A stretch of DNA of 64,000 bases, from contig OY760074.1 in the NCBI GenBank assembly GCA_963663035.1, positions 2,048,001-2,112,000 of the forward strand. The letters are read 5' to 3'. How positions within the stretch are numbered: position 1 is the stretch's first letter; each line of letters opens with the position of its first letter. Shown piece after piece: positions 770 through 59,405 of the stretch. The translations under genes were made by a program, and so were the position numbers. Under the pieces are notes generated by a model. It ran no database searches. It was not told the origin of the DNA and worked only from the letters and a program-made list of their open reading frames with translations. This DNA is from Acidobacteriota bacterium. Lineage in GTDB: Bacteria > Acidobacteriota > UBA6911 > RPQK01 > JADFOI01.

Positions 770-971
770 TAGTGGTTACCTCTTAAGGATTGCCCCAGCA
801 AACCCACTCAATCCAGTGTCCTATAAATATTGATGGCCGTTCAAGCCGGACTCCCACAGCCTGGCACTTCTTCACTTCGAAGGCAGCGACCTTGAAGGCT
901 CTCACCCTCCACGGTATACTCCCGCGAGAGCAAGGCCCGGGTGAAATGAATCAGTTTGCAAAGGAGGCACC

Positions 972-1520
972 ATGAGATCTTACGGAGCGAAGGAGCTGAG
1001 CAGAAGTTTCCAGACGGTCCGGAACAACACCATCACGCTTGCCGAAGAGATTCCGGAGGATCAGTACGACTTTCAAGCGGCTCCCGACACCCGAACTGTG
1101 TCACAGCTGCTGACCCACATCGCACTGGCCTTCCAATTCCAGCACCAAATCCATACTCTGGAGGGCCTGACAACTCTTGAGGGGTTTGACTTTCAGTCGG
1201 CCATGCAGCCTCTCAGATCTCAGGAGCAGCAGCCCAGAACCAGAGATGAGATCATCGAGCTGTTGCGGGACAACGGCCAGAAGTGGGCCGAATGGCTGGA
1301 AGGTCTATCCGAGGACTTCCTGGCAGAACGTGTGGGCATGCCGCAAGGTGTGACGCCCGCCGAAAAGAGCCGCTTTGAGATGATTCTTTCAGTCAAAGAG
1401 CACGAAATGCACCACCGGGGCCAGCTCATGTTGATTCAGCGAATGCTGGGCCTGGTGCCACACTTGACGCGCCAGATGCAGGCCCGCATGGCCCAAATGC
1501 AGGATGCCGACAAGGCTTAG
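972..1520 (+). CDS. DinB family protein
   Basis: LLTHIA and HEMHHRGQL motifs; AAGGAGG RBS. Confidence 0.9.
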   Translation: MRSYGAKELSRSFQTVRNNTITLAEEIPEDQYDFQAAPDTRTVSQLLTHIALAFQFQHQIHTLEGLTTLEGFDFQSAMQPLRSQEQQPRTRDEIIELLRDNGQKWAEWLEGLSEDFLAERVGMPQGVTPAEKSRFEMILSVKEHEMHHRGQLMLIQRMLGLVPHLTRQMQARMAQMQDADKA

Positions 1521-1538
1521 TGCTTAGTGATTAGTGCT

Positions 1539-2516: not shown

Positions 2517-2826
2517 CTCTGACCAGCCTTTTCACTCATTATAGATGGAGTCACGCTGCATTCCCAACCTTTAATCTGTGCAGGAAAAAAGAGCTCCCCG
2601 ATTTCTCTGCCTGAAACTGCGGTTGCTGAAGGCCCAGGGCACTAGCCCGCACATGTTTTGGTGATCTCTATCACTGAAAAACTCATGGGATGTCACTAGA
2701 ATCTTCTAGAATAAAATAGAATGATGAAGTGTCGCAAGACGACAAGAGACTTAGTCAAGAGGTAAATTGGCCCTTATCGGGTGGTTAACTAAACATGGGA
2801 ATGGTTTTGAAAGGGGGATACGACGT

Positions 2827-3471
2827 ATGAATGGCAGAAAAATACTTGTCTTTGTCAATACCCTGGTTTTCTTAAGCCTTGCCACTCTATCCGCCCAAAA
2901 CACGGATTTTGAGGTCACAACTGCGCTTGTAACGACCAGGATCGAAAACCGGGTGCCAGAGACACAGACATCGGAAAACAGATTTCCTGCAACCGTGGAC
3001 AAGCTCATCTATTTCACACAGATCGAAGAGGCCGCAGCGCCCACCACAATCCTCCACGAATGGTACTGGGAAGGGGAATTGCTGGCCAGCATTCCACTAG
3101 CAATAGCCGCTGAGCGTTGGAGAACCTGGAGTTCAAAAACCATCATGCCCCACCAGACCGGGAACTGGACTGTCGTCTCGAAAAGGCCCGATGGTAGTAC
3201 AGCTCAAAACACTTCTTTCTCTATCGACAGCGATATGCGGACTGTCCAGCTGCACATTGAAAGTAATCCTGGTGACGCCATTGTGTATGAAGGCAGCACT
3301 ATCTTGGGAACTACGGGAACCGATGGTCTGAGCATCGTCTGGTTCTGGGAAGAGGGAGAATACACCCTGGATATTACCAAGCCTGGCTATCAGTCTGGGG
3401 CAATCAAGCTCACGGTTGAAGACCCTGTCACTCGCATCCAGGAAGTCGTCCAGCTGCAAGGAAGCCCGTAG
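2827..3471 (+). CDS. Exported DUF2914-like protein with C-terminal PEGA-like domain
   Basis: Signal peptide; HEWYWEG, WRTWSSK and GNWTV; C-terminal IESNPGDA...YTLDITKPGY. Confidence 0.75.
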   Translation: MNGRKILVFVNTLVFLSLATLSAQNTDFEVTTALVTTRIENRVPETQTSENRFPATVDKLIYFTQIEEAAAPTTILHEWYWEGELLASIPLAIAAERWRTWSSKTIMPHQTGNWTVVSKRPDGSTAQNTSFSIDSDMRTVQLHIESNPGDAIVYEGSTILGTTGTDGLSIVWFWEEGEYTLDITKPGYQSGAIKLTVEDPVTRIQEVVQLQGSP

Positions 3472-3529
3472 CCTGACAAGTCCTGAAGGGCGCGGAGAAC
3501 GAAGAGATTGGCCTTCCTGGCCAACCGCC

Positions 3530-4330
3530 CTAGCCGGGACGGCGGAAGTCCAGCAAATACTCGAAAGTAACACCCATCGTGATGTAGTTGCTGGGCCAGC
3601 CAAAAATGCCGACGCGATTCACGATATTGGTGCGATCCCAGATGATGATGTTACGAAGCTCGTAGCCAACACTCTGGAGAGCCTCGATCAGCGCCACGTG
3701 GATTAGGATCCTTTTGTCCTCCCACCACATATCTGGCACATTGATGACACAGTGGGCCTTGGGACGCAGGAACGGCAACAGGTTTGCATAAATACTGGCC
3801 ATCCCAGCAGCGTACTTCTCCAGCGGAAGAAGGCCCAAATCACGTGAGTCCTGCGAATACTGTTCGACTCTCATGTACTGTTCATTTTTCCGATCTTTGG
3901 TCCGTCGGCTCTTGTTCTTTCGCCTCCGATTGAGAAGGTTTGCATAGGGCGGAGATGTGAGAATGAGCGAGAGGGTTTCTTCCTCTAAATAATGTGAGAC
4001 TTTCCGTGCATCTTCGTGAAAGGCAATCTGACGACACTTTCCGCGCAAGCTTTCTTGTCCCAATCTCTCAAGACAGAGATCAATGTAACTCTTCTGTAAG
4101 TCGAAGCCCACTGCATTTCTGTCAAGGTCCCGAGCCGCAACCATGGTGGTTCCCGATGCCACAAAGGGATCAAGCACCAGCTCTCCCTGGTGCGTAAAGA
4201 GCTCTATACATCTTTTAGCCAGGGAGATAGGAAAAACGGCTGGATGGAGTTTCTTGTCGCGAATGTCTCTTCCTTCGTAGTAGGACTGCCACACACCCAG
4301 CTGTGCTTTGAGCCACTCCTTTGCTGACAT
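3530..4330 (-). CDS. Orphan N4-C/N6-A DNA methyltransferase (N-terminus probably extends upstream across a G9 tract)
   Basis: HPAVFP, VLDPFVASGTT (motif I) and TSPPY (motif IV); no restriction enzyme adjacent. Confidence 0.88.
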   Translation of the reverse strand: MSAKEWLKAQLGVWQSYYEGRDIRDKKLHPAVFPISLAKRCIELFTHQGELVLDPFVASGTTMVAARDLDRNAVGFDLQKSYIDLCLERLGQESLRGKCRQIAFHEDARKVSHYLEEETLSLILTSPPYANLLNRRRKNKSRRTKDRKNEQYMRVEQYSQDSRDLGLLPLEKYAAGMASIYANLLPFLRPKAHCVINVPDMWWEDKRILIHVALIEALQSVGYELRNIIIWDRTNIVNRVGIFGWPSNYITMGVTFEYLLDFRRPG

Positions 4331-4564
4331 GCAATTGAGGTGCTTGGGTGAACAGGAACAGATTCTCTGGCACGGGATGTCAGCTTGGGGGGGGGCGATT
4401 CTTCGACCTGGTTGCGGAAAGACGACTCATTTCATGCTCACAGCCAATCAAAATTATAACTTCTGGGTCCGTCAATCGTGCAGAGATCCATGTGTGCTAT
4501 TTTTTTGAGTTTTTGTGACGACCACCACCCCAAAACATACTTTTATTGGCTATCCTGTCTTCAG

Positions 4565-6424
4565 ATGCACAAAGAAAACATCGCCGGGAAGACCCTCGGC
4601 TCAGGACTCAGGCACCGCAAGGAGCACAGATCCTGGAGCTGGGCGACCATCTCCCAGGAACTCGAACGGGCAATGGGTCAGACAGCCCCCCCCAAGACCA
4701 GTGTCTTCGGATACTCCACTGGAGAAGTGGAGCGACCGAACGTGTTGGTGGAGCGATATATTCAGGAGGCAATCAATAGACGCAGGATCGACGCAGTTCA
4801 AGAGCCACCAAGCCGGAGTCAAATACACTTTAGCGAGCTGGTTGAAAATGCCAGGGACCTCATCTTCCGCTATCGTCTTGCACAGCCGCAAGGCTTTGAA
4901 TATATGAGCCCGGTGGTCCAGGAGATGCTGGGCTACACCCCAGAAGACTTCTACACCGACCCCAGCCTGATCCACAAGCTCATTCACCCCGAGGACCGGC
5001 AGAGGCTGGAGCAGTCTCTCCAGGGAAAAGGTCCATATCATGAGCGGGAGACTCTTCGATGGGTGCACAGGAACGGTGGGATGCTGTGGATTCAGTGGGT
5101 GAACGTGCCCATCTATGACGAATCCGGAAACCGAGTGGCCATTGAGTGCATCGCCCGCGACATCACTTCCCAGGTGGAGGCGGAAGCAACCGCCATCCAC
5201 TTAGCCGCCATTGTCAAGTCCTCCAACGATGCCATCATTAGCACTGCACCAGATGGCTCAATTGTCAGCTGGAATGCCGCCGCGGAGCGTCTCTTTGGCT
5301 ACACGGCCCAAGAGGTGATCGGACGCACCGCCGCGATCCTCCGGCCAGGGTACAAGGCGGGGCAGTATTCTGAGATTTTTGAGAGACTCATAAAAGGCGA
5401 ACGGTTAGAATATTCTGACACGGTAGGAGTTTGCAAAAGCGGCCGGCGAGTTCACCTCTCTGTAAACATCTCTCCCATCCGAAATAACCTAGGTCAGATC
5501 ATTGGGTTCTCCGCGATCGTCCGCGACATCATAGAGCGCAAGTGGGCCGAGGAAAAGAATCGGAAGAGCCAGGAACGCTACCAACAGCTGTTCGAGAACG
5601 CGCCAGATATGATGGCTGTGATTTCCTATCCGGACGGAGAGGTCCTGGAATGCAACCAAACTCTGGTGGATGAGGTTGGCCTGAACAAAGAAGAGATCGT
5701 GGGGCGCTCCTGGCTGAAACTGTATCCTTCCGATTCCCGAGAGACGGCCCAGGAAACGTTTACGACCTATGTCCAGACAGGCAAACTACCCTGGAAGGAG
5801 CGTACCCTCCTGCGAGCCGACGGAAGCACCTTTCCTGCTCTGGTACAGGTGATGCCGATCTCTGATGAAGCAGGCTCAATTGTGGCCACTCACGTTACCT
5901 GGCGAGACATCAGCGACCTGAAACAGACCCAACAGGCTCTAGAGCAAAAGGAAAGAGAGCTATTCGCGTCTCAAAAGATGGAAGCCATTGGAACCTTGGC
6001 CGGTGGCATTGCCCATGACTTCAACAACCTCCTGACCGGTATTCGAGGCTACGCACAATTACTGCAGGAGAAACTAGAGCCAGCCTCTCCTCAAAGCAAG
6101 GATGTCCTTGAGATACTGGCATGTTCTGATCGTGCTGCGGCCTTAACAGCTCACCTTTTGGCCTTCAGCCGAAGACAACTCTTCGACCCCGTAGTCCTCC
6201 ATCTCAACTCAGTGATCGAGAACACCTGCAAAATACTCAAACGGCTGATTGGAGAGGACATAAGCCTGAACTTCGTGGCTGCCACGAACCGAGACAATAT
6301 TCGAGCCGATCCGGGTTACATCGAGCAGGTACTGATGAATCTGACCATCAATGGACGCGACGCCATGCCCGATGGGGGCACACTCACCATCACAACTTCC
6401 CACGTGACGGTGAAGCAGAACTGA
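4565..6424 (+). pseudogene. Multi-PAS hybrid histidine kinase, 5' fragment (IS-disrupted)
   Basis: Three PAS/PAC domains, H-box LAGGIAHDFNNLL, N-box QVLMNLTINGRDAM. The stop codon is the terminal TGA of the IS3. Confidence 0.9.
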
Positions 6425-6487
6425 CCTTGCCCCCTAAAACGAGTCCAGTTTGAATGTTAGGATTTCCGGTTTAGGAAGGAGGCAAGG

Positions 6488-6766
6488 ATGGCAGGGAAGC
6501 GGTTTAGGGCAGAACAGATCATCATGAAGCTGCGTGAGGCAGAGGTGGGTCTGGCCCAAGGACAGAGGGTGGGACAGGTGTCGAAGCAGATGGGGGTGAG
6601 CGAGCAGACCTACTACCGGTGGCGCAAAGAGTACGGAGGGCTCCGGTTGGACCAGGCCAAGAGGTTGAAGGTGTTGGAGAAGGAGAATACCCGGTTGAAG
6701 AAGCTGGTGGCGGATCTGTCTTTGGACAAGCAGATCCTGAAGGAAGTGTCCTCGGGAAACTTCTAG
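6488..6766 (+). CDS. IS3 transposase OrfA
   Basis: [19 protein letters not shown] and leucine zipper; GGGAAAC slippery site at 6754-6760. Confidence 0.93.
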
Positions 6767-38132: not shown

Positions 38133-39560
38133 ATGGCTGAGATTAGACACTTGAGCGGTGTAACGCGGAGAAAGTTTCTAGCAGGGTTGGGAGCAGCGGG
38201 TGCTGTCATGATTTTGGGTCCAAGCAATCAGGCCTATGCCCAGTCGCTGCCTCGACCCGGACCCGCCGATTGGCCCCGCTTCGGCTGTGACCTGCACAAC
38301 ACCCGCTTTAACGCTCGTGAGAGAACGCTGGGCCAAGACAACGTGGGGCGGCTGAAGATGAAGTGGCGCTTCCAGGCGGATGGAGTCATTCAAACGACTC
38401 CCACTGTGATCGGAGACACCCTCTTTTTTGGAACCCAGTCCGGGCAAGAGTTTGCGTTGGAGACCCAAACCGGGGAACCCAAATGGAGGTTTGCGGTTGA
38501 GAATCAGCAGACCAAGCGCTACATGAGGCAGGGAGTGCGCTCTTCCTCCCATTATGCCGATGGCCGTGTCTACTTCGGGGACAATATGACGAAGATACGG
38601 TGTATCGAGGCGGCCACTGGGAAAGAGATTTGGCAAACACAGTTAAGCGACGATCCTACTGCCCAGACCCGCTCCTCGCCTGCTGTATACAACGGCAGAG
38701 TCGTTCTGGGGTATTCTTCTGCCCTTGGTAATGCCGAGATCGTCTGCCTGGACGCCGACACGGGGGCCGTCTCCTGGCGCTTTAGAACCGCTCCAGAGGG
38801 TGCCGGTGGTTCAGTTTGGGGTTCGCCCGCCATTGATGAACAAGAGCAAATCGTCTACAACGTTACGGGCAGCGCCAAGGGCTTCATGCCTCCAGGTCCC
38901 ATGTTGTATACCGAGAGCATTTTGGCTCATGACCTGGAAAGCGGAGAACTCCTCTGGTATTCGCAGGCGCGACCGCGCTCTCCCCATGACCTTGATTTCG
39001 GATGCCACCCCATGATCTTCGAAGCCCAGGCTCCCTCGGGATACCGTGGCAATGTGGTACGAAATTGTGTGGCGGCCGGTAGTAAAGGAGGGTTGTTCAC
39101 TTGGGACCGGTATACAGGTGAACTCTATTGGAAAGTGATGCTCACCAGCGCCGCTGCCAGTGGCGGTATGCAACAGGACAGTACGGCAGTGGCCTACAAT
39201 CGGATCTATGCTGTCTCGAGCGCCATCACTGCCAACGGTCCGGTGTCAGTCACCGCAGCCTTGCATCCGTACACTGGAGACATCATCTGGTGGGTGCCCA
39301 ATGCAGTTGACAATCACGCGCCGGTGGCTGTAGCCAACGGTGTATTCTACCAGGGCTTGATGGACGGCACCCTGCAGGCTCTTGATGCGGATTATGGCCG
39401 GGTGCTGTGGGAGCACAAGTTGCCCACTGCTCACAGAGGGGGAATAGCCATTGCCAACGGAACACTCTACGTTGGCAGCGGTGAACCATCCGGGGCCACC
39501 GAAGAAGTTGTCAATAGGGGCAGCTATTACATGTACGCCTTCAGCATTGATGGTGCCTAA
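38133..39560 (+). CDS. Tat-exported PQQ-type beta-propeller protein
   Basis: TRRKFL; DWPRFG; repeated xxTGxxxW blades; DLDFG. Confidence 0.85.
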   Translation: MAEIRHLSGVTRRKFLAGLGAAGAVMILGPSNQAYAQSLPRPGPADWPRFGCDLHNTRFNARERTLGQDNVGRLKMKWRFQADGVIQTTPTVIGDTLFFGTQSGQEFALETQTGEPKWRFAVENQQTKRYMRQGVRSSSHYADGRVYFGDNMTKIRCIEAATGKEIWQTQLSDDPTAQTRSSPAVYNGRVVLGYSSALGNAEIVCLDADTGAVSWRFRTAPEGAGGSVWGSPAIDEQEQIVYNVTGSAKGFMPPGPMLYTESILAHDLESGELLWYSQARPRSPHDLDFGCHPMIFEAQAPSGYRGNVVRNCVAAGSKGGLFTWDRYTGELYWKVMLTSAAASGGMQQDSTAVAYNRIYAVSSAITANGPVSVTAALHPYTGDIIWWVPNAVDNHAPVAVANGVFYQGLMDGTLQALDADYGRVLWEHKLPTAHRGGIAIANGTLYVGSGEPSGATEEVVNRGSYYMYAFSIDGA

Positions 39561-39613
39561 AGAAGAAGCCGGGGAGCAGGTTGAGAGAAAGTTTGAGGAG
39601 AGGTAATCGGCAA

Positions 39614-40207
39614 ATGTCCCACCATAAAAGTGGAATGATACGTCGTGACTTCCTGAGGGTGGCAGGAGTAGGTACGTTTGGACTCTCCAGTCTGAGTTGG
39701 CTGAAGTTGGCCAGTGGGCAATCGGCGATTAACGAAATCAGCCTTTCCAGAAATTATGCTGCCGGCCGCTACTATTTTAATCCACTGGGACTGCATATAG
39801 CTCCTGGTGAAACCGTTCAATGGTCTTCCAGGAGCGAAGGATTCTCGGTGAGCGCCTATCATCCTGACAACGATAATCATGAGTTGCGAATTCCGGAGGA
39901 TGCAGAGCCCTTTGACACGGGAATCATGCCCGTGCGTTCGACCTTGGAATGGACCTTCGAAGTGGAAGGCACCTATGACTACTACAGCCAGAGACAGGAG
40001 GTCATAGGTATGGTCGGTCGGATTGTTGTGGGGAGGCCGGGCGGCCCTGGTGAAGAACCTTTAGGTTACGGTTCAGGAGAGGGACGTGCTCCCATATTTA
40101 GGGAGGCCAGGAAAGTCTTTGAATTTGCCAGATCAGAAGAAATAGTCAGAAGAAAAGTCATCCCCTATCCTGTAAAGGAGCTGGAGCGCAGATTTCCACT
40201 GTATTGA
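39614..40207 (+). CDS. Tat-exported cupredoxin-fold protein
   Basis: RRDFL; FNPLGLHIAPGETVQW, AYHPDN and GTYDYY...GMVGRIVVG. Confidence 0.8.
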   Translation: MSHHKSGMIRRDFLRVAGVGTFGLSSLSWLKLASGQSAINEISLSRNYAAGRYYFNPLGLHIAPGETVQWSSRSEGFSVSAYHPDNDNHELRIPEDAEPFDTGIMPVRSTLEWTFEVEGTYDYYSQRQEVIGMVGRIVVGRPGGPGEEPLGYGSGEGRAPIFREARKVFEFARSEEIVRRKVIPYPVKELERRFPLY

Positions 40208-40219
40208 GTCTTACCCTTA

Positions 40220-42532
40220 ATGTTGAAAACTAATTTTCTGCACTTTCGTCACGTTGGATTGGGGCTCTTCTCATTGGCTCTGGCAATCTCCTTTGTTGGA
40301 GCATCCCAAGATCCTGAGGCTGGAGTGCTGTCGGGTCAGATCACCGATCAAACAGACCTTGCCGTCGGTGCTGTCCAAATCTGCGTCAGAGGGCTTTCAA
40401 CGGCCGTCCTGCGTGTCACTCGCTCAGGCCAGGATGGACAGTTCCGGATTCCAGACCTTCCCCCTGATTCCTACGAAGTCCGCCTCAGCGCGCCAGGATT
40501 TAACGAACACGTGGAAGTCGTGGCCTTGGGGGACAATCAAAACCGGATCTTGAACGTCCGTTTGCGAGTCTCCATGCTGCCTGAATCGATCACCGTGACC
40601 CCCTCCCGCAGCGAACAAACAGTGGGTGAGCTGGCAGCTTCCGTCAGTGTCCTCACCCAAGATGAGATCCAGAGCTCGCCAGCGCTGGTTCTGGATGATG
40701 TGCTTCGTCAGATTCCCTCTTTCAGTCTCTTCCGGCGGACCAGCAGCCTGGCGGCACACCCCACCAGTCAAGGAGTCTCGCTGCGTGGCATCGGACCCAG
40801 TGGCGTCAGCCGGACTCTGGTACTGGTGGACGGCATGCCTTTCAACGATCCCTTTGGAGGTTGGGTGTACTGGAGCCGCGTTCCCCTGTTAAGCATCGAC
40901 CGGGTTGAGATCGTGGAAGGCTCGAGTTCCAGCCTCTACGGGAACTACGCTATGGGGGGAGTGATCCACATCCTGAGCCGGAAACCGGAAAGGCGAACCC
41001 TGGCCATGGAGGGGCGCCTCGGAAATCGAGAGACGGCGAAGCTTGATTTCTTCGTCAGCGACGTGTGGGGTCCCTGGGGGTTGTCCCTGGACGGAAGCCT
41101 CTTCCACACCGACGGATACAAGATCGTTGCCCCGGGCCAACGAGGGCAGGTGGATATAGAAGCCAATTCCGAACACCGAAATTTTAATCTCAAGCTGGAT
41201 TACACCCCCTCGGCCGATTTCAATTTCTTCGTCAAAGGGAGTTACTTCACCGAGGACCGCAGCAATGGCGCCCCCTTGCAGAACAATGATACCCAGTATC
41301 GATTTCTGGGCACAGGAGTGCGCTTTCGTACCCCCGACAACAGCGAATGGCAGGCCTCCCTGTTTTCCCAATTTCAGAATTTCGGGGGCACTTTCTCTTC
41401 GATTCCGGCGGATCGAAACTCGGAACGACTGGCCCTTGGGCAGGAGGTTCCCACCTACGGATATGGTGGCTTTACCCAGTGGTCAAAGCCTCTATCCAGT
41501 TCACACTTGCTCTCGGCAGGCTTTGACTGGAGATGGACGGACGGCGAAAGCCAGGACATTGTCTATATTCGGACGCCTCCCATACCGGTGCGTTTCCGCG
41601 ACTCGGGTGGCCGGCAGCGGGCAGTGGGAGTGTTTCTGCAGGACTCTTTTACACTAATGCCCGGCTTTCAGGCCACGCTCAGCGCTCGTTTTGACCACTG
41701 GCGAAATTACGATGCTGCAAAGAAGGAGCTGGCGGTTTTCAGCGGACTGCGGACCCGAGAGGACTTTGCCGACAAGGAACTTGGTGTGGTCAGTGCACGC
41801 CTCGGGTTGTGGTATGAGCTGAAGGATGGGATCTCAGTTTGGAGCGCTGTTGGCTCCGGGTTTCGCACACCCACGCTCAATGAGCTGTATCGGCAATTTC
41901 AGGTGGGTTCCATTCTCACTCAGGCCAACCCCGATCTGGGTCCGGAACGCCTGAGAGGTGCCGAAGGTGGCCTGAACTATGCTGTGAATGAGAAGATCTT
42001 CTGGCGGGTGACCGGCTTTTGGAGTCGCGTCAAAGACCCCGTTTCAAACGTCACCATCGCGCCCAATACACGTCAGAGACAAAATTTGGGCCAAACCCGA
42101 AGCTTGGGACTTCAATGGGAGTTGGAGTACCGTCCCAGTAGAAACTGGCTCTTGGGAGGCGCCTATCTGGTGAATGATTCGACGGTGAGAAGCTTCCCCG
42201 CCAACGTCGCCATAGAGGGTAACAGGCTGGCTCAGGTGGCAAGACACCGAATCACGCTCCAGGCCTCCTATAGGGATCCCCAGACCGTGAATGTGGCGCT
42301 GATGGGAAGATTTGTGGGTGCTCAATTTGACGATGATCTCAATCTTTTTCCCCTGGGAAACTACTTTGTGGTGGACACGACGGTTTCCCGGCGCATGGGC
42401 AAAGATACTGAGGTCTTCCTGGCCGTTGAGAATCTATTTAACCGGGAATATCCGGTTCGGACCAGTCCAAGCAGTATCGGAACACCGATCCTGATACAGG
42501 GAGGTGTCCGCTTTCAAATCCTGGGGCGTTGA
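40220..42532 (+). CDS. TonB-dependent receptor
   Basis: Carboxypeptidase-regulatory-like N-domain; plug region LVLVDG...IDRVEIVEG..SSLYG..AMGGVI. Confidence 0.92.
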   Translation: MLKTNFLHFRHVGLGLFSLALAISFVGASQDPEAGVLSGQITDQTDLAVGAVQICVRGLSTAVLRVTRSGQDGQFRIPDLPPDSYEVRLSAPGFNEHVEVVALGDNQNRILNVRLRVSMLPESITVTPSRSEQTVGELAASVSVLTQDEIQSSPALVLDDVLRQIPSFSLFRRTSSLAAHPTSQGVSLRGIGPSGVSRTLVLVDGMPFNDPFGGWVYWSRVPLLSIDRVEIVEGSSSSLYGNYAMGGVIHILSRKPERRTLAMEGRLGNRETAKLDFFVSDVWGPWGLSLDGSLFHTDGYKIVAPGQRGQVDIEANSEHRNFNLKLDYTPSADFNFFVKGSYFTEDRSNGAPLQNNDTQYRFLGTGVRFRTPDNSEWQASLFSQFQNFGGTFSSIPADRNSERLALGQEVPTYGYGGFTQWSKPLSSSHLLSAGFDWRWTDGESQDIVYIRTPPIPVRFRDSGGRQRAVGVFLQDSFTLMPGFQATLSARFDHWRNYDAAKKELAVFSGLRTREDFADKELGVVSARLGLWYELKDGISVWSAVGSGFRTPTLNELYRQFQVGSILTQANPDLGPERLRGAEGGLNYAVNEKIFWRVTGFWSRVKDPVSNVTIAPNTRQRQNLGQTRSLGLQWELEYRPSRNWLLGGAYLVNDSTVRSFPANVAIEGNRLAQVARHRITLQASYRDPQTVNVALMGRFVGAQFDDDLNLFPLGNYFVVDTTVSRRMGKDTEVFLAVENLFNREYPVRTSPSSIGTPILIQGGVRFQILGR

Positions 42533-52984: not shown

Positions 52985-55384
52985 TCAGTGCTGGAGAGCC
53001 TTCATGATCTTCTCTGGAGTCATGGGTAAGGAGGTGATTTTGACCTGGAAGGGAGAAAGGGCATCTTCAACTGCATTGGCAATTGCAGCAAGAGAGGTGA
53101 TGCTTCCCCCTTCTCCTACGGCCTTACTGCCGAGTAAGGTAAAGGGGCAGGGAGACTCCATATGCTCGATCTCAAGCCTGGGCAGCCCAAGAAAAGTCGG
53201 CTTCAAGTAGTCCATGAATGTACTGGAGAGGAGTTGCCCATCTTCGGCGTAAACGAAGTCCTCACAGAGCGAAGCTCCTATTCCATGAACTGTGGAACCT
53301 ATCAGCATCCCTTCAACGATCCCGGGGTTGATTTGTCTACCGCAGTCATGAACGATGACATAGCGAAGGAAGTGCACCATCCCCGTCTCCACATCCACTT
53401 CCACAACGACCACGTGCACAGAATTGGAATGTGTGGTTTGGACGTTGAAATCGGTTCTGCTGGGTAGTTTGGTGTATGGGCTCCTATAGTAAGCTATCTC
53501 CTTTAGTCCCGGCTCCAGGTCCTCGGGCAGCAAGAGAATCTGCTTATAGGCTAAAGAAGCGACCTCCTGGAATGAAACAGCCTTTCCCTTTCCCTTACCC
53601 TTCCCCGTACACACCTTTCCTTCCCTCAACTCCAGGTCCGTTTCATCCACTTTCAACATATGGGCGGCGATCTTTCGAATCTTATCTCTGACCTTCTTAG
53701 TCGCCATAATCACTGCACCCAGATCCACGTCGTTGAACTTGTTGGAGTAGACTCCGGAATGGCCAAGGAAGGGAGAGACAAGAGAATCGATCCGGCTCTC
53801 CACCGAAACTCTCTCAAGGGTAATGCCCAGCATATCAGCGACCACTTGAGCAGCAGTCGTCGTATGACCTTGTCCCGAGTCCATAGAACCCAGGAGAACC
53901 TGTACATTTCCGTCAAAATCCATCCCTACAATGGCACCATCAGCGTTCCCCATGTACTCTGGAGTACCCCTGGAGGTGTAGTAATAGCCAAGGTTGGAGG
54001 TGCCCGGTTCGATACCTGCGCTGATCCCTATCCCGATGTACCTTCCCTTCTTTCTTTCCTCTTCCCGCTGCTTCTTCCGCTCTTCATACCCGACCCGTGT
54101 CAGAGCTTTCTTTAGACACTCGGGATAATTGCCGCTCTCATAGATTTCGCCGGACGGGGTTGTGTAGGGCATCTGCTCTGGCTGAACAAAGTTCCTGAAC
54201 CTCACCTCAGAGGGATCCAGGCCGAGTCTCTTAGCGACGATATCCACCATCCTCTCCAATACGAAAATCATGGCCGGCTTCCCAACTCCCCGGTTCTGAA
54301 CTGTGGGACCTTTATTGGTCACCACACTGATCAGCTCGGCCCTGGTGCCCGTAATGTTGTAGCATCCAACCATGGTCGCGAACTTTATGAGCGCATAGAT
54401 GCCTGTGGTGTGGATGAAGGAACCGTCATTCTCTGTGTCCTTCAGGGCAAGACCCAGGATCCTTCCATCCTTTCGCACAGCCAGCTCAATCTCAAGATGG
54501 GCGTCAGGGGCATGAGATCCGGCCGTTAAGTTTGCGGTTCTTGTTTGTATCCACTTGACCGGTTTATCCACTTTCTTGGCGAGAAGAGAAAGTATGACCA
54601 TGTGGGGCCATATCGCCAACTTGAGGCCGAATGAGCCCCCGATGTCGGGAACGATGAGCCTCAACTGGTTAGTGGAAATGCCCAAGCATCGACAGACGTT
54701 GACAATGCTCCTTCCGTGCTGCTGGTCATTGGCCCACACGACGAAAGAGTCGTTTGCCCGTTCATACTCTGCGATGATCGCCCAGGTCTCCAGAGGTGTT
54801 GAACTGTACCTTTGGATTTTGAATGTCTCTTGAACGATGAGATCGGCTTCTTTGTAAGCCTCCTCCAGGCTGCCATGCTCCATCACATCATGGAGCAGGA
54901 CATTGCTCCCAGCTTCCTCAAAGACCAAGGGGGCATCTTCCTTGAGTGCATCCGAGATGTGAACGAGCGGGGTCAGGAGTTCATAATCCACCTTGATGAG
55001 CTCAAGGGCATCCTCGGCGATGTAGGCGTCCTGGGCAACTATGGCGGCGACCGGTTCTCCAACATAGCGGACCTTGTCCACCGCCATTGGGTATTGGATT
55101 GCAGTTTTGGTGATGGCTCTGCCGGGTATCGGCCTGGTCTGCTCAGCTACCTCTTTTCCCGTGATGACGGCCATGACCCCCGGCAGCTTTTCAGCCTCAC
55201 TGGTGTCGATCGCCTGAATTCGAGCGTGGGCCAAAGGACTTCCCAAGACCGCTGCATGGTGGCAATCCATATTCAGATCATCAATGTAGAGGGCCTCCCC
55301 CCGGACCAGCCGACTATCCTCTTTTCTTGGGCTGGGCTTTCCCACCCAATTTCTCGTCACCAGAATGTCCTCCAACTTCATCAT
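52985..55384 (-). CDS. Xanthine dehydrogenase-family Moco large subunit
   Basis: VRYVGEP, GGSFG, GQGH, HDCGRQINP and KAVGEGG. Confidence 0.92.
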   Translation of the reverse strand: MMKLEDILVTRNWVGKPSPRKEDSRLVRGEALYIDDLNMDCHHAAVLGSPLAHARIQAIDTSEAEKLPGVMAVITGKEVAEQTRPIPGRAITKTAIQYPMAVDKVRYVGEPVAAIVAQDAYIAEDALELIKVDYELLTPLVHISDALKEDAPLVFEEAGSNVLLHDVMEHGSLEEAYKEADLIVQETFKIQRYSSTPLETWAIIAEYERANDSFVVWANDQQHGRSIVNVCRCLGISTNQLRLIVPDIGGSFGLKLAIWPHMVILSLLAKKVDKPVKWIQTRTANLTAGSHAPDAHLEIELAVRKDGRILGLALKDTENDGSFIHTTGIYALIKFATMVGCYNITGTRAELISVVTNKGPTVQNRGVGKPAMIFVLERMVDIVAKRLGLDPSEVRFRNFVQPEQMPYTTPSGEIYESGNYPECLKKALTRVGYEERKKQREEERKKGRYIGIGISAGIEPGTSNLGYYYTSRGTPEYMGNADGAIVGMDFDGNVQVLLGSMDSGQGHTTTAAQVVADMLGITLERVSVESRIDSLVSPFLGHSGVYSNKFNDVDLGAVIMATKKVRDKIRKIAAHMLKVDETDLELREGKVCTGKGKGKGKAVSFQEVASLAYKQILLLPEDLEPGLKEIAYYRSPYTKLPSRTDFNVQTTHSNSVHVVVVEVDVETGMVHFLRYVIVHDCGRQINPGIVEGMLIGSTVHGIGASLCEDFVYAEDGQLLSSTFMDYLKPTFLGLPRLEIEHMESPCPFTLLGSKAVGEGGSITSLAAIANAVEDALSPFQVKITSLPMTPEKIMKALQH

Positions 55385-55863
55385 GGGTCTTTTCTCTCTA
55401 CTCTCCTGATCCTTTCAGCCGCATACTTCACAGCATCCACAATCTGCTGATAGCCCGTGCACATGCACAGGTTTCCGACCAGCGCCCTTCTGATCTCTTC
55501 CTCATCAGGCTCTGGATTGCCCTGGAGCAAGAAGTAGGAAGTCATAATCATGCCAGGGGTGCAATAGCCACACTGCACAGCAAATCGCTCCCTGAAGGCC
55601 TCTTGCACTGGGTGCAGATCTTCAGCTGCCAGACCTTCTATGGTCGTGATCTCAAAGCCATCCGCACCAACCGCCAGCATCATGCACGACTTGATCGCTC
55701 TCCCCTGGCAGATCACCGTGCAGGCCCCGCAATGTCCGGTGTCGCAGCCTACATGGGTTCCCGTGAGACGGGCCTTTTCTCTGATGTAATGGACAAGCAG
55801 AAGCCGGGCCTCCACATCGTGTTGAAAGTCTTTCCCATTAATTCTCAATTGGATCTCGTGCAT
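55381..55863 (-). CDS. (2Fe-2S) small subunit, CoxS/XdhC-like
   Basis: GCDTGHCGACTV, QCGYCTPG and GNLCMCTGY. Confidence 0.93.
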   Translation of the reverse strand: MHEIQLRINGKDFQHDVEARLLLVHYIREKARLTGTHVGCDTGHCGACTVICQGRAIKSCMMLAVGADGFEITTIEGLAAEDLHPVQEAFRERFAVQCGYCTPGMIMTSYFLLQGNPEPDEEEIRRALVGNLCMCTGYQQIVDAVKYAAERIRRVERKDP

Positions 55864-55973
55864 GATGTCCCTGCTAGGTTGATGCCCCGTCGCCACAAGA
55901 TACTCGGAAGCAAATCGACAGTCAACAACCTGACTCACGAGTCTTTTCTATCGACTAAATCGATCAAAAAACC

Positions 55974-56122
55974 GTTTGCACAACCCCTCAACCGGGAGCC
56001 CAAAAACGGTGTTTCAGAAGGGTGTGGAAAAAGCTGTGGATAAGCTGGTGCTCTTTTCTCTGAAAAACATGTCACAGAACTTCCTCACGGAAATCCGAGT
56101 TTTGCACAATAAATGTGCATCA
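55974..56122. promoter_or_regulatory. Cluster of DnaA-box-like 9-mers
   Basis: TGTGGATAA 56035, TGTGGAAAA 56023 and TTTTGCACA 56100 fit TTWTNCACA; one-mismatch boxes at 55974 and 56114. Confidence 0.55.
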
Positions 56123-56141
56123 TTTTTTTTATCTTTTTCTC

Positions 56142-56169
56142 TTGTTTCCGGTTCGCAACTGGATAGAAT
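56142..56169 (+). promoter_or_regulatory. Putative sigma70 promoter of the ncRNA candidate
   Basis: TTGTTT-16-TAGAAT, ending 7 nt before the terminal stem, with a T-rich tract upstream. Confidence 0.55.
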
Positions 56170-56175
56170 TAGAAC

Positions 56176-56614
56176 TGTCCCAAGGGGTAAACGCAATGAG
56201 CCGAAACCCTGAGGCGGCGACCCCGAGTCGGAAAGATCTGCTATCAGGCTTCGGTCGAAGTAGCAGGGAAGCCAGCAAGGGGGGGAAGCCGAAACCTACT
56301 TGCTTCGGTAAGGGGGGGAACGGTTGAACCGGACCGAGAGGAAAACCGGTTTTCTTCGGAAAGCAGGGAGCATACTTCGGGACGGGACGTAGCCGGGAAC
56401 TTCCATTTTGATGGGATTCTCGAAAGAGAAAAGTCAAGGTGGGAAGGGCGGCCCGCTTTCTGGGTTGTCAGTTGCGCTCTTCGGAGTGTAGCCGGCGGTT
56501 TGGGGGTGTGGGTCAACCACTTGAGAAGCTGAGAAACCGATTTTTAACGAGGTCGGGAAAGAGGGCTTCCCAAGCCATCAGATTTGGCTCTCTCTGCGGA
56601 TATCACTTGGGACA
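56176..56614 (+). ncRNA. Large structured non-coding RNA candidate, family unknown
   Basis: 5' and 3' ends pair; nested long-range helices; several cUUCGg and GNRA loops; many G-U pairs; T-rich tail; no credible ORF. Confidence 0.8.
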
Positions 56615-56643
56615 TTTATTTATCCTCTCTTTTTCTTTATTAG

Positions 56644-56853
56644 CCCGCATTATCCATAAATTTTCTGCTGCAGTGTCGCAATCATCCACGCTGACGACGT
56701 TGTGCGACCCGCAAAGCGGGTACCCCTTGCGCTCCTCGACGTACTGCAAGAGTACGTCTGCGCGGGGCGCGACCCGCAAGCGGGTACCCCTCACACGCCT
56801 TGTCATCGCGGCGCTTGCACCACTTCGCTAAGAAAACCTATGGGAAATGCGGG
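56644..56853. mobile_element. IS1380-like MITE copy 4
   Basis: Ends CCCGCATTATCCATA / TATGGGAAATGCGGG; flanks TTAG/CTAG; the right flank is the lipoprotein stop. Confidence 0.88.
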
Positions 56854-57342
56854 CTAGTCCACCTTCTGATAGACGTACCTGAACTCAGGGGATCCGGCTG
56901 GAGCAATGAAGAGCTGGTCTTCCTCCTGGCTAAAGATAAATTCAGAGGTGGTGCCGTCACGGTCGGGGTTCAGTGTGGAAGTCCAGGTCGCTGTCACTAT
57001 CTCTCCCTCAAGGGTAAAGGTTCCGCAGGCAGAGTTGGCAGCAGTGAAGGCTGCAGCTGCCTTTCTCATTGCCTCCTCGTCAGACTCGTCCTGGACGAAG
57101 TTCTCTCGCTCTTTATCGACGCGCAGATGGCACAGAGAGCCATCCTGAACAATCATTAGGCCTTTCTGGGTTGAGCTCGGCCCATTGGGAGAATCCAGGC
57201 GAAGCAGTTGGTAGACCCCATTGTACCGTTCGACACTTGACTCGGCTTGGGGAGTCACTTCGGTGGCGGTGGCGGCTCCTCCGCTGCAAGCCATTACAGC
57301 CATAGCACTGCTGAGAGACAACAAAGCCATCAGGTTCTTCAT
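56854..57342 (-). CDS. Hypothetical lipoprotein (lipocalin-like possible)
   Basis: Lipobox VMAC; GVYQL strand; GAGGAGG RBS. Confidence 0.75.
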   Translation of the reverse strand: MKNLMALLSLSSAMAVMACSGGAATATEVTPQAESSVERYNGVYQLLRLDSPNGPSSTQKGLMIVQDGSLCHLRVDKERENFVQDESDEEAMRKAAAAFTAANSACGTFTLEGEIVTATWTSTLNPDRDGTTSEFIFSQEEDQLFIAPAGSPEFRYVYQKVD

Positions 57343-57430
57343 ACGATCCTCCTCTTGACACTAATCAACATTTTCATGCTATCGTGCGCCAGAGGAGTTT
57401 AAATGGTTGCAGCTTGCAGGTCAACCCTAG

Positions 57431-57621
57431 CCCGAATTATGCATAGGTTTTCGTAGCGAAGTGGCGCAGGCGCCGCAATGACAAGGCGTGTGAGGGGTAC
57501 CCGCTTGCGGGTCGCGCCCCGCAGACGTACTCCTGCAGTACGTCGAGGAGCGCAAGGAAACACAACGCCGACAGAGCGGATGATTGCGACACTGTAGCAG
57601 AAAATTTATGCATAATATGGG
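57431..57621. mobile_element. IS1380-like MITE copy 5
   Basis: Ends CCCGAATTATGCATA / TATGCATAATATGGG; CTAG duplication. Confidence 0.9.
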
Positions 57622-57654
57622 CTAGTAGGTGCAAAAGACTGGAGAGGCAGATAA

Positions 57655-58704
57655 GTGGAAAAGATCCCGGTAGGAATTTTAGGTGCCACTGGGGCGGTAG
57701 GACAGAAGTTCATTCTGCTCTTGACTGATCATCCCTGGTTTGAACTCCGGGAGTTGGCCGCCTCCGAGCAATCATCAGGAAATCGATATCAAGATGTCGT
57801 CTCCTGGAGACAGGCGAGTCCGATTCCGGAAACCATCCGAGAAATGATGGTCAAAGACTGCGAACCGAATCTCGACTGTAAGATTGTTTTTTCTGGTCTG
57901 GATTCCTCAGTGGCCGGAAACATTGAAGAGTCTTTCGCCCAAGCGGGATACTGGGTGTTTTCCAATGCCATGAATCACCGCATGGATCCCGATGTTCCGC
58001 TGGTGATCACGGAGCTCAACCCTGAGCACCTGAACATCATTCCCCACCAGCAGAAGACTCGAGGCTGGGAGGGGGCCATCCTCACCAACGCCAATTGCTC
58101 CGCGATTGTCCTGGCTCTCTCGCTTGGACCACTTCACAAGAGGTTCGGACTGGAGACTGTCCATGCGGTAACTTTCCAAGCGGTCTCGGGTGCCGGCTAT
58201 CCCGGTGTCCCCTCACTGGACATCCTGGGAAACGTCATTCCCTTTATTCCTGGAGAAGAAGAAAAGATGGAAAGTGAGACCCGAAAGATCTTAGGTGTAC
58301 TGGATCAGGATCGGTTTCGTCCGGCCGCTTTCACAGTCAGCACTCATGCGAATCGAGTGCCGGTTGAGGAGGGTCACCTGGAATGTGTTTCGGTCAAGCT
58401 GAAGGAGAAGGCTCCGCTGGAAGAAGTGATTCGATGCTGGCAGGAATTTACTGGACCAGATCATGAATTGAAGCTTCCCTCAGCCCCCCAGCACCCTGTG
58501 GTGGTGGTTTCAGAAGAGGATGGTCCCCAACCTCGCCGAGACGTCTGGAAATACCAGGGGATGAGTGCTCTGATAGGGCGTGTCCGCCCCTGTCCACTTT
58601 TTGACATCAAGTATGTTGTGCTCGGACATAACACCATCCGGGGAGCCGCCGGAGCCTCAGTGCTCAATGCGGAGTTGGTCCTCAAGAAAGGGATGTTGGA
58701 GTAG
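57655..58704 (+). CDS. asd: Aspartate-semialdehyde dehydrogenase
   Basis: GATGAVGQ, NANCS, QAVSGAG and HNTIRGAAG. Confidence 0.95.
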   Translation: MEKIPVGILGATGAVGQKFILLLTDHPWFELRELAASEQSSGNRYQDVVSWRQASPIPETIREMMVKDCEPNLDCKIVFSGLDSSVAGNIEESFAQAGYWVFSNAMNHRMDPDVPLVITELNPEHLNIIPHQQKTRGWEGAILTNANCSAIVLALSLGPLHKRFGLETVHAVTFQAVSGAGYPGVPSLDILGNVIPFIPGEEEKMESETRKILGVLDQDRFRPAAFTVSTHANRVPVEEGHLECVSVKLKEKAPLEEVIRCWQEFTGPDHELKLPSAPQHPVVVVSEEDGPQPRRDVWKYQGMSALIGRVRPCPLFDIKYVVLGHNTIRGAAGASVLNAELVLKKGMLE

Positions 58705-58709
58705 GCCCC

Positions 58710-59405
58710 ATGCGAATTACCCTTATAGGCTACGGCAAGATGGGAAGAAAGGTAGAGGAGGTGAGCCGTGACCAAGGCCACGAAGTTGTCCACACGATCG
58801 ATATCGACAACCTTGCCTCTGAAGCCGGATTCTCAGGAGAATGGGTCAAGATGACTGATGTCCTCATCGATTTTTCCACAGCAGCTACCGTGGTGACGAA
58901 TGTCCAGAATGCCGCCCGCGCGAAGATTCCCATAGTGGAAGGGACCACTGGTTGGAATGAACAGTTGAAGAAGGTTCAGCAGATCGTGGAGAGCCAGGGT
59001 GGAACCTGCGTCTATTCCAGCAACTTCAGTATGGGGGTTCAGAGTCTCTTCCACCTGACACGACAGGCTGGGAAGCTGCTTTCTCGTTTTGAAGATTTCC
59101 ATCCCTTTATCGTGGAATCTCATCACACTCAGAAGATCGATGCACCCTCGGGCACGGCACTGACATTGCGCAAAATTCTCGAGGAATCGTACAGCTCAGA
59201 GGTACCCACTTCGAGCCTGCGGGTTGGTTTTATCCCCGGAAACCACCTTGTGGGCTTTGACTCTCCCTTTGATACTCTGACGCTGGAGCACAGGGCGCGA
59301 AGCCGGGAGGGCTTTGCTAGAGGAGCGCTCTTTGCTGCCCAGTGGGTCCAGGGTAAAACAGGCTTGTATCGCTTCGAAGACGTCCTTTTCGGTGAAGAAA
59401 CATGA
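58710..59405 (+). CDS. dapB: 4-hydroxy-tetrahydrodipicolinate reductase
   Basis: GYGKMG, GTTG and ESHHTQKIDAPSGTA. Confidence 0.95.
   Translation: MRITLIGYGKMGRKVEEVSRDQGHEVVHTIDIDNLASEAGFSGEWVKMTDVLIDFSTAATVVTNVQNAARAKIPIVEGTTGWNEQLKKVQQIVESQGGTCVYSSNFSMGVQSLFHLTRQAGKLLSRFEDFHPFIVESHHTQKIDAPSGTALTLRKILEESYSSEVPTSSLRVGFIPGNHLVGFDSPFDTLTLEHRARSREGFARGALFAAQWVQGKTGLYRFEDVLFGEET

Follow-up and report, generated by a model that had tools for sequence, protein, structure and literature searches.

Several described bacterial RNAs offer points of comparison for the locus reported here. The 6S and Ms1 RNAs are regulators that bind RNA polymerase. In bacterial Y RNA (Yrl), a conserved terminal stem with non-canonical features binds a protein and the interior module is variable. 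OLE, ROOL and GOLLD are reported to form homo-oligomeric complexes consisting of RNA only (PMC12286853), and the raiA motif is described as a conserved structured non-coding RNA (ncRNA) (PMC11706538). We analysed a stretch of 64,000 nucleotides (nt), called the window below, which covers positions 2,048,001-2,112,000 of an Acidobacteriota genome consisting of a single 3.59-Mb contig. Positions 56177-56613 of its plus strand are an independent gene for a highly structured, very abundant ncRNA of about 437 nt, located at 2.10 Mb in the genome. We regard it as nearly certain that this is a real, stand-alone and new RNA family. We rate the RNA as a new class, whereas the category of large ncRNAs itself already exists.

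A preliminary description, made from the sequence of the window, had proposed a structured element of about 440 nt at 56176-56614, and folding, covariation and transcript contigs confirmed it at these coordinates. The minimum free energy (MFE) of the plus strand of this segment was -193.3 kcal/mol, compared with -158.9 ± 6.6 kcal/mol for dinucleotide shuffles (z = -5.26), and none of 100 shuffles reached the energy of the native sequence. For the reverse complement the values were -136.6 kcal/mol and z = -2.1. An asymmetry of this kind between the strands is what G-U pairs bring about in a plus-strand RNA, and it agrees with the earlier argument from G-U pairs that selection acts on RNA of this strand. 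The likely ends of the RNA are position 56177, the G of GTCCCAAGG, and position 56613 or 56614. The locus is single-copy in its own genome, and no open reading frame (ORF) is conserved across it, as stop-free stretches shift in frame and position among 15 relatives.

For the analysis of covariation, 15 members of the family were aligned with MAFFT (alignment A1; 466 columns, 77% mean column identity). The RNAalifold consensus comprised 126 pairs in 20 helices, and 94.9% of the cells at these pairs were standard pairs. Both sides had changed in 48 of the 126 pairs, compared with 27.0 ± 3.0 in 500 column shuffles, none of which reached 48. Kinship alone can beat column shuffles without any structure, but controls in which the consensus was slid by 1-3 columns, and which preserve relatedness, were equally far below, with just 11-16 pairs changed on both sides and 36-53% pairing. 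Homologs in Acidobacteriota and compensatory changes thus support the structured RNA that had been proposed. The preliminary description had also named 13 individual helices, of which ten were present in the MFE fold and/or the covariation-supported consensus, while three were unsupported. All nine pairs of the terminal stem were recovered. The CGCA/TGCG, GAGCCGA/TTGGCTC and CTGA/TCAG helices, the CTTGC-UUCG-GTAAG and TTTC-UUCG-GAAA hairpins, the long CTTCCATTTTGAT.../...GGTGGGAAG hairpin with its TTCTC-GAAA-GAGAA tip, GTTGCGCTC-UUCG-GAGTGTAGC and CCGATTT/AGGTCGG were found in one or both structures, and the CTGCTA/TAGCAG hairpin in the MFE fold only. No pair was recovered of the long-range GGGAAGCC/GGCTTCCC helix (0 of 8) or of the CGAC/GTCG (0 of 4) and AACCGG/CCGGTT (0 of 6) hairpins; the strand GGCTTCCC pairs instead in the covarying helix CTTGAGAAG/CTTCCCAAG.

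The overall layout consists of a closing rod, a 5' domain, three UUCG-capped hairpins, a hairpin with a GAAA tip, a long UUCG hairpin and a 3' domain (Table 1). Among 42 non-redundant representatives, helix P1 of the rod (GUCCCAAG/CUUGGGAC, 8 bp) is almost invariant, and so is GGUA/UAUC, which is replaced by GGUG/CAUC, a compensatory change, in two lineages. Across the same representatives, P2 and P3 covary freely next to the invariant P1 and loops. Covarying helices beside a rod module that never varies suggest that this module is recognised in a sequence-specific manner. In the central hairpins (helices 10-13) 3, 3, 4 and 1 pairs were changed on both sides, in helices 14-15 (56401-56444) 7 of 12 and 1 of 5 pairs, and in helices 19-20 of the 3' domain 5 of 9 and 4 of 8 pairs. 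The GAAA tip and the AGAAAC of the 3' domain are both invariant in A1. For Domain I, 73% of the cells pair in a wider alignment (A2), a value that is partly due to misalignment. When the 5' 120 nt of A2 were folded alone with RNAalifold, a GGGGU-ACCCC pairing appeared between RNA positions 8-12 and about 45-49 (56184-56188 with about 56221-56225). Both strands of this pairing are nearly invariant and leave no covariation by which to judge it; such a helix might form transiently during transcription and then give way to the closing rod.

Transcript evidence came from assembled sequence data. Part of the stretch is contained in 13 RNA runs, and four metatranscriptome runs from three studies (X1-X4) were compared over 55800-57900 using Logan contigs, not reads; the source runs are labelled as sponge and marine-sediment metatranscriptomes. 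In all four runs, high-depth contigs cover the RNA from 56192/56194 to 56611/56612 with 0-1 mismatch. The k-mer depth, which is one figure per contig and not suited to ranking genes, was 4942 in X1 (370 nt, 1 mismatch), 2982 in X2 (418 nt, 1 mismatch), 4843 and 6637 for two contigs in X3 and 920-2333 in X4. Contigs matching the flanks exactly had depths of 2-6, for example at 56769-56995 and 57159-57376 in X1 (0 mismatches), and reveal the presence of the organism, or of a very near relative, in the runs. The depth of the RNA thus exceeded that of its flanks about 1000-fold, and these very abundant RNA-only contigs (920-6637 versus 2-6) are in good agreement with a discrete transcript. No contig bridged the 3' end of the RNA at high depth in the four runs. 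The segments 55942-56154 and 57646-57900 were without contig cover, which is not evidence of silence. A depth of up to 444,785 in the bin 56510-56580 resulted from short contigs of relatives piling up on the most conserved segment. One contig of X1 joins a 3'-end-like sequence of a relative (...GCGAATATCACTT followed by AAA) to position 56193; it could be an assembly chimera, a product of template switching during reverse transcription, or a 3'-5' junction.

The comparison with known RNAs was based on Rfam 15 (4227 covariance models). At the gathering score, three tRNAs were the only matches in the whole window, and two tRNAs the only matches at 20 diverse homologous loci of all length classes. 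With E ≤ 10, the region 55900-56900 produced four chance-level matches (best E 0.42), all far below the gathering score, and with E ≤ 1 nothing was found on the RNA at six homologous loci. The lack of a match for the window, the region and the 20 relatives supports the novelty of the family. As candidates, RNase P RNA (RF00010 at 1495289-1495672, 322.8 bits), transfer-messenger RNA (tmRNA; RF00023 at 2434497-2434857, 187.9 bits) and signal recognition particle (SRP) RNA (RF00169 at 920979-921077, 68.4 bits) were rejected, each having its own copy elsewhere in the genome. RF00013 identified 6S RNA in 58 of the 76 genomes of the order, always at another locus than the RNA described here (contig C34 versus C117 in G009, for example), including eight genomes of the same family that carry both. 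Since 6S RNA occupies separate loci in genomes bearing the RNA, the latter is not a 6S RNA, and the idea that it replaces 6S was likewise rejected. The absence of RNase P, tmRNA, SRP and 6S signatures noted in the preliminary description is therefore borne out. RF00013 detected no 6S RNA in the own genome or in any of the seven genomes of the genus (G000-G006), where it has either diverged or been lost, but it did so in each of the eight remaining genomes of the family.

The likeness to 6S and Ms1 RNA lies in an abundant, stable molecule with paired 5' and 3' ends, for which a sequestering role is conceivable. The fold, however, is a multi-branched junction of 242-695 nt, unlike the 6S rod of about 185 nt with its large central bubble, and the locus has no RF00013 match. 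With OLE, ROOL and GOLLD the RNA shares a length of hundreds of nucleotides, many covarying helices, a stand-alone gene and a lineage-restricted occurrence. It differs in that it has no match to their Rfam models, belongs to a different phylum, lacks an association with prophages or tRNAs, and possesses an invariant rod that doubles as the presumed terminator stem as well as a promoter module with DnaA boxes. Genes of the oap type, which accompany OLE, are not associated with this RNA. Like the raiA motif, which is often situated upstream of one gene and yet is an independent abundant transcript, the RNA is frequently followed by asd or lysC; it has no Rfam match, is about twice as large, occurs in Acidobacteriota rather than Bacillota or Actinomycetota, and has another fold. 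The conserved terminal stem and variable interior also recall Y RNA, but the RNA is much larger, and the E-value-mode scans gave no match to an Rfam Y RNA; an rsr (Ro) gene was not seen nearby, no search having been aimed at it. In the parts of the literature that were searched we found no description of the RNA and no described counterpart of the family, of its terminator-closing invariant rod or of the DnaA-box module; supplementary candidate lists of large-scale screens may contain the RNA.

The distribution of the family was studied with several methods. In a BLASTN search of 41 relatives, full-length homologs with 66-88% identity were present in 14 of 14 genomes of the family, and in five other families of the order the ends alone matched. 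Altogether 57 distinct instances were collected, for which the T-rich tail and the 3' motif were selection criteria and hence are present by construction. They range from 242 to 695 nt (median 454), with invariant termini and variable interior domains. The shortest form, of 242 nt, is locus L018 of the unpublished genome G017, which also contributes one row to each of the order, class and phylum tallies. Paralogs are frequent, several genomes having two of them, one example being a form of about 355 nt ending in CCTTGGGGC, and two groups also exist within single metagenome-assembled genomes (MAGs).

The 15-mer GTCCCAAGGGGTARA (≤1 mismatch) was detected in 68 of 76 genomes of the order, some of the one-mismatch sites being due to chance as judged from a reversed-pattern control and inspection. 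In a sample of 401 genomes of the phylum, exact GTCCCAAGGGGTRRR occurred in 21 of 27 in-order genomes, in none of 11 genomes that belong to the class but to another order, and in 9 of 363 genomes of other classes. These nine sites, and one extra site within the order, lie in ORF-like DNA without promoter or terminator and were dismissed as chance matches. A covariance model of the 5' 120 nt (R1), built from A2 and with five base pairs essentially a sequence profile that distant homologs with a different 5' domain would escape, identified the RNA in 53 of the 76 genomes of the order and in none of 61 from the remaining orders of its class. It added two genomes with a diverged 5' motif, G021 and G043, the former being negative in BLAST although R1 finds a copy. 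In sum, the RNA is present in at least 63 of the 76 genomes of the order, namely 53 by R1, eight by exact 15-mers outside the R1 filters and two (L048, L049) by eye. Upstream of asd in five genomes of sister orders, nothing similar was seen in the two that were readable; two others gave no Asd motif match and one yielded no asd hit. A search anchored on the tandem DnaA boxes of ten genomes ended at dnaA or at unrelated loci and at no homolog outside the order. Among the best 80 of 89 matching contig stretches, 50 carried MAG titles naming Acidobacteriota, Acidobacteria, Acidobacteriaceae or 'Candidatus Aminicenantes'; the other 30 had non-Acidobacteriota labels (nine of Saccharibacteria type), and none of these passed the filter for 5' and 3' motifs. 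Among all genomes searched, members of the family were restricted to a single order of Acidobacteriota as defined by GTDB.

The gene is framed by conserved signals at both ends. The pattern TTG-N19-21-(T/C/G)AnnnT-N6-9-start was present in 50 of the 57 instances, for which the promoter was not a selection criterion. All listed relatives share a T-rich run, a -35 element cTTGt, a spacer of about 17 nt, a -10 element TAgAaT/TAtAcT and 7-8 nt before GTCCCAAGGGGTARAC, and their RNA ends in GCGAATATCACTTGGGAC followed by A/Y and T6-T9. The candidate promoter of the preliminary description is thus supported by conservation, although a simple consensus scan misses it; its hexamers match the σ70 consensus in five of six (-10, TAGAAT) and three of six positions (-35, TTGTTT). 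The T-rich tail noted there is present as well, but is interrupted in this genome (ATTTATTTATCC), while relatives have T7-T9. By contrast, the claim that no gene follows on the same strand did not hold, because asd (57655-58704, plus strand) and dapB (58710-59405, plus strand) are situated 1 kb downstream.

When the flanking ORFs of the 57 instances were clustered, asd was found downstream on the same strand in 18, directly next to the RNA in 17 of them and 1 kb away in the window, where the gap holds an opposite-strand lipocalin-like ORF flanked by repeats resembling repetitive extragenic palindromic (REP) elements. The aspartokinase gene lysC (AA_kinase and ACT) is directly next in nine instances and follows asd in two more (L102, L116). 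Other downstream neighbours are ThuA-like, thioredoxin/NHL and amidase genes or a convergent PPDK-like gene. Conserved promoter-like sequences occur downstream of the T-run and ahead of asd in the own family (CCTTGACA...GCTATGGTG, of the type TTGACA...TATGGT) and in a second group (GTTATAGT), and also before lysC (TTGGAT...GGGGTATATTACGG, TATATT type); in L018 just about 50-60 nt separate the T-run from asd. The promoter-like sequences of asd and lysC, together with the expression picture, make a read-through leader unlikely, and the neighbourhood is more simply explained as inherited gene order. The earlier judgement that a riboswitch is unlikely is supported by these downstream promoters, by the varied contexts, by the lack of a bridging contig and by the lack of an Rfam match.

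Upstream of the RNA, a conserved module of 240 nt comprises a far block, three repeats in the same orientation, a palindrome, a T-run and the promoter (Table 1). The far block was present in most of the 29 upstream regions compared, including paralogs with other upstream genes. Measured against the DnaA-box consensus of E. coli and B. subtilis, TTATCCACA, the 9-mer TGTGGATAA is a perfect box on the minus strand and TGTGGAAAA has one mismatch. Boxes recur at -142 to -145 and at -154 to -157 in nearly all instances, paralogs and those with unrelated upstream genes included. Of the 56 instances whose upstream sequence is long enough, 53 contain one or more boxes (≤1 mismatch) between -180 and -111, 33 have a perfect box and 26 two boxes. 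DnaA boxes are not enriched across the window (13 matches versus 9.1 expected), and the 14 perfect boxes of the 3.59-Mb genome compare with about 27 expected by chance; the tandem motif occurs there only once. The palindrome is found at the same distance in 37 of 56 instances (≤1 mismatch per half) and was flagged by the scan as a hairpin with T-run; its role is that of an operator bound by a dimeric protein or, alternatively, of an insulating hairpin.

The tandem motif TGTGGAAAA-N3-TGTGGA(A/T)AA (≤2 mismatches) was detected in 279 of the 401 genomes of the phylum, a tally that includes the unpublished genomes G017 and G217 and greatly exceeds the reversed-pattern control. In 15 of 46 loci retrieved from across the phylum, the motif precedes the aligned DnaA start by 33-92 nt, and three of the ORFs were confirmed as DnaA by Pfam. 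Autoregulation of dnaA via DnaA boxes is established in E. coli and B. subtilis, and the occurrence of the same motif before dnaA therefore indicates genuine DnaA boxes in this phylum. Work on E. coli oriC has shown that 9-mers of the same orientation, 2-3 bp apart, favour DnaA oligomers. DnaA probably binds the array upstream of the RNA gene as well, judged by its likeness to these sites, since canonical clusters are lacking for comparison. A possible link to DnaA had been mentioned in passing in the preliminary description; it gained support from the fixed boxes at -142/-154 in 53 of 56 instances and from the motif before dnaA in 15 of 46 loci. The array shares its tandem 9-mers of the same orientation with a DnaA-autoregulated dnaA promoter, but is placed about 95-120 nt upstream of the -35 element of an ncRNA and 1.4 Mb from either dnaA copy.

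Table 1. Positions of the RNA gene, its domains and the associated upstream and downstream signals (window coordinates), and of the two dnaA copies (genome coordinates)
Feature	Position	Strand	Details
Far-upstream block	55950-55969	+	ATCGACTAAATCGATCAAAA (ATCGACTAAATCGATCAAA at about -227); about -227 to -208 from RNA start
DnaA-box array	56023-56050	+	direct repeats TGTGGAAAA 56023-56031, TGTGGATAA 56035-56043, TGGTG 56046-56050; 12- and 11-bp periodicity
Palindrome	56103-56119	+	TGCACA-N5-TGTGCA (TTGCACA-N5-TGTGCAA, about -74 to -58); just 5' of T-run
Promoter	56122-56169	+	T-rich UP-like run 56122-56139; -35 TTGTTT 56142-56147; 16-nt spacer; -10 TAGAAT 56164-56169
RNA gene	56177-56613	+	about 437 nt; multi-branched fold closed by rod of about 30 bp formed by 5' and 3' ends; from fold, covariation, metatranscriptome contigs
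Closing rod, 5' strand	56177-56203	+	P1 GUCCCAAG, G opposite A, GGUA, tandem purine-purine loop, P2 (CGC), P3 (GAGCCG)
Domain I	56208-56296	+	CCCC/GGGG, GUCGG/CCAGC, UUCG-capped hairpin; consensus helices 4-9
Central hairpins	56299-56395	+	CUUGC-UUCG-GUAAG; CGAG/UUCG around CCGGUUUUC-UUCG-GAAAGCAGG; short GGGAC/GCCG hairpin
Long hairpin	56401-56444	+	sequence-conserved GAUUCUC-GAAA-GAGAA tip; helices 14-15
Long UUCG-capped hairpin	56446-56518	+	helices 16-18, both-side changes in 7/8, 4/14 and 1/3 pairs
3' domain	56520-56574	+	CUUGAGAAG/CUUCCCAAG around AGAAACC, hairpin CCGAUUUU/GAGGUCGG, purine-rich loop
Closing rod, 3' strand	56585-56613	+	TGGCTC ... GCGGATATCACTTGGGAC
T-rich tail	56614-56625	+	ATTTATTTATCC; with P1, presumed intrinsic terminator
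dnaA copy	3,512,940-3,514,268	-	own genome (L188:976-2304)
dnaA copy	39,112-40,446	+	own genome (L189:1174-2508)

Taken as a whole, the data are in our view best explained, with slightly better than even confidence, by an RNA-protein scaffold that acts in trans and for which DnaA tunes transcription; the protein-scaffold mechanism taken by itself is proposed tentatively, with confidence somewhat short of even. The RNA would be transcribed from its own σ70-type promoter and would end where the closing helix meets the U-run. The invariant terminal rod (8-bp P1, G opposite A, 4 bp, tandem purine-purine loop) would serve as a protein recognition platform, and the interior hairpins capped by UUCG or GAAA as a stabilising body that tolerates expansion. 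Working in trans, the RNA would then be a stable RNA-protein scaffold or a sequestering RNA, and the DnaA boxes at -154/-142/-131 would tune its transcription and thereby link the RNA level to the status of replication initiation. It is conceivable, though we consider it unlikely, that the RNA is an order-wide 'fifth stable RNA' of the replication-initiation circuit, for which DnaA would set the level and which, through a protein on its rod, would act back on the cell cycle or tie replication status to growth physiology.

Several observations weigh against the DnaA-tuned scaffold or the evidence for it. Contig depth, as one figure per contig, conveys neither strand nor true ends nor levels, and the runs were chosen because they contain the stretch. 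The contigs start at 56192-56199 and not at 56177; this was attributed to breaks of the assembly graph in the 15-mer common to relatives, and may also reflect 5' processing. Neither promoter nor terminator was flagged by simple scans of the region, the latter because the 'loop' of a stem formed by P1 and followed by the T-run is the whole RNA. No canonical cluster of DnaA boxes exists in the own genome (≤3 per kb, ≤1 mismatch each), so that the origin is not recognisable by its usual signature, and the distance of the boxes (-131 to -154) from the promoter is large for classical repression. By any method, the RNA was not found in the three genomes of genus g23 or in G025 and G034 of family f12, and BLAST with a query from the same family was negative in the four of these genomes that were tested; the RNA is thus not indispensable. 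No protein gene is consistently adjacent to the RNA across the instances, and no partner protein, ligand or target was identified. Finally, 27 of 57 instances have asd or lysC downstream on the same strand, so that a functional link to the aspartate pathway is conceivable.

The latter finding bears on the proposal of a cis-acting leader, a riboswitch or attenuator of asd, lysC and dapB in which a signal would stabilise P1 and cause termination at the U-run. The direct succession of the RNA by asd (17 instances) and lysC (9 instances), the presence of asd 1 kb downstream in the window, the short distance in L018 and the combination of P1 with a U-run, which has the geometry of an 'off' switch, fit this proposal. 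Yet in this genome an opposite-strand ORF flanked by REP-like repeats intervenes before asd, other lineages have promoter-like sequences between the T-run and asd or lysC, and the downstream genes vary. Moreover, no contig bridges the terminator of an RNA that stands about 1000-fold above its flanks, Rfam gave no match to a lysine or other riboswitch, and the P1 sequence is invariant, unlike the P1 helices of riboswitches; altogether a leader is very improbable. A DNA-level unit appears equally improbable: here the locus would bind DnaA for its titration or reactivation, modulated by the strong transcription beside it, and the RNA would be a stable by-product. This would suit the sole tandem DnaA-box array of the genome, the fixed spacing of array and upstream block even in paralogs, and the persistence of boxes and palindrome in g23 (L222, L231) without a recognisable RNA, but the 48 compensatory pairs and the invariant unpaired nucleotides reveal selection on the RNA fold, and a by-product would not hold its structure order-wide at 66% identity in the family and far lower identity outside. 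We give practically no credence to the notion that the supposed RNA is in fact a GC-rich fold arisen by chance, a repeat element or an overlooked protein gene. The genome is indeed rich in REP-like palindromes, two of them just downstream, and stop-free stretches as long as 110 codons lie across the region; however, the locus is single-copy and differs from the REP-like repeat, these stretches are not kept in frame or place among the 15 relatives, and covariation, strand asymmetry and expression all speak for an RNA; barring tool error, the covariation and expression results refute this notion.

Two further proposals retain a trans-acting RNA. A regulator that binds RNA polymerase, of the 6S or Ms1 type, would also be abundant and stand-alone, with a long terminal helix and a promoter like those of stable RNAs, and the failure of RF00013 to find 6S RNA in the own genome or any of the seven genus genomes fits this type. 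Against it stand the bona fide 6S RNA elsewhere in 58 of 76 genomes, eight same-family carriers of the RNA among them, the multi-branched junction in place of a rod with central bubble, and the lack of a 6S or Ms1 match in E-value-mode scans, so that we consider this type of regulator quite improbable. The RNA might also function without protein, as a ribozyme or as a self-assembling complex. Its large size is in the class of OLE, ROOL and GOLLD, for which homo-oligomeric RNA-only complexes are reported (PMC12286853), the conserved unpaired junctions GAAAACC, AGAAACC and GGAACUU are rich in purines, and the invariant GAAA-capped hairpin could make tertiary contacts. We nevertheless judge an RNA-only function unlikely. 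The nearly three-fold range of lengths, with conservation limited to the termini and a few junctions, would be unusual for a catalytic core or a cage, and there is no homology to any ribozyme family. Most of the loops are UUCG, and UUCG loops rarely make tertiary contacts.

Some observations concern DnaA and the chromosome in general. A replication origin at the RNA locus was considered and rejected, as the cumulative GC skew places the origin at about 3.2 Mb and the terminus at about 1.25 Mb, with the RNA at 2.10 Mb, and as paralogs of the RNA exist. The GC-skew origin lies about 0.3-0.4 Mb from either dnaA copy. The own genome encodes two full-length DnaA paralogs that are 78% identical and both score far above the TIGR00362 cut-off (Table 1). 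The duplication is shared by six of the seven genomes of the genus and by G063, and elsewhere in the order a single copy or no copy was detected. A link between the two paralogs and the RNA was rejected, since only the own genus and G063 show the duplication. The RNA gene is 1.4-1.5 Mb from dnaA in the own genome, and 64-160 kb from it on the same replicon in many genomes of the order (G016, G030, G036, G056, G059, G060, G024, G035). Right before dnaA, the tandem motif is often preceded by an inverted TTTTCCACA (for example L195:1501-1521, L202, L223). Genome G278 (L192) has 12 matches to the tandem motif, one of which is situated about 130 nt before a tRNA gene and hints that other stable-RNA genes may be preceded by DnaA boxes too. 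At two loci of genus g23 (L222 of G038 and L231 of G067, around position 1501), a perfect tandem box and a TGCA...TGTGCA palindrome are followed by unrelated sequence in which the RNA was not found; these loci are either relics of a lost RNA gene or the module has been reused for another gene.

Upstream of the RNA gene and divergent from it, a pair of molybdenum hydroxylase genes occupies 52985-55938 on the minus strand, encoding a large subunit of 799 aa (Ald_Xan_dh_C, MoCoBD) and a [2Fe-2S] small subunit of 185 aa. The REP-like palindrome GACCCGCAA(A)GCGGGTACCCCT has at least 144 copies in the 3.59-Mb genome (76 and 68 by strand), often paired about 62 nt apart. Copies in the window are located at 56706-56727, 56771-56791, 57493-57513 (minus strand), 62142, 26804 and 13705 (minus strand). 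The first two lie just 3' of the RNA and, together with the copy at 57493, flank the lipocalin-like ORF; this separation of RNA and asd is seen in this genome only. A match to CRISPR-DR31 at 56675-56709 (E 0.42) was below threshold, lies inside the REP-like repeat region and was discarded.

Few large structured RNAs whose function is unknown have been described in bacteria, and new biology has come from each new class. The family described here is supported by conservation across an order, covariation, a conserved promoter layout, a presumed terminator, paralogs and an approximately 1000-fold over-representation in metatranscriptomes of three studies, and it belongs to a phylum, the Acidobacteriota, that is dominant in the environment and poorly studied. 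The variants of 242-695 nt with their invariant termini define the minimal core on which biochemical and structural studies can build. No abundant ncRNA of model bacteria is known to be controlled by DnaA, and such control, if true, would have no counterpart there.

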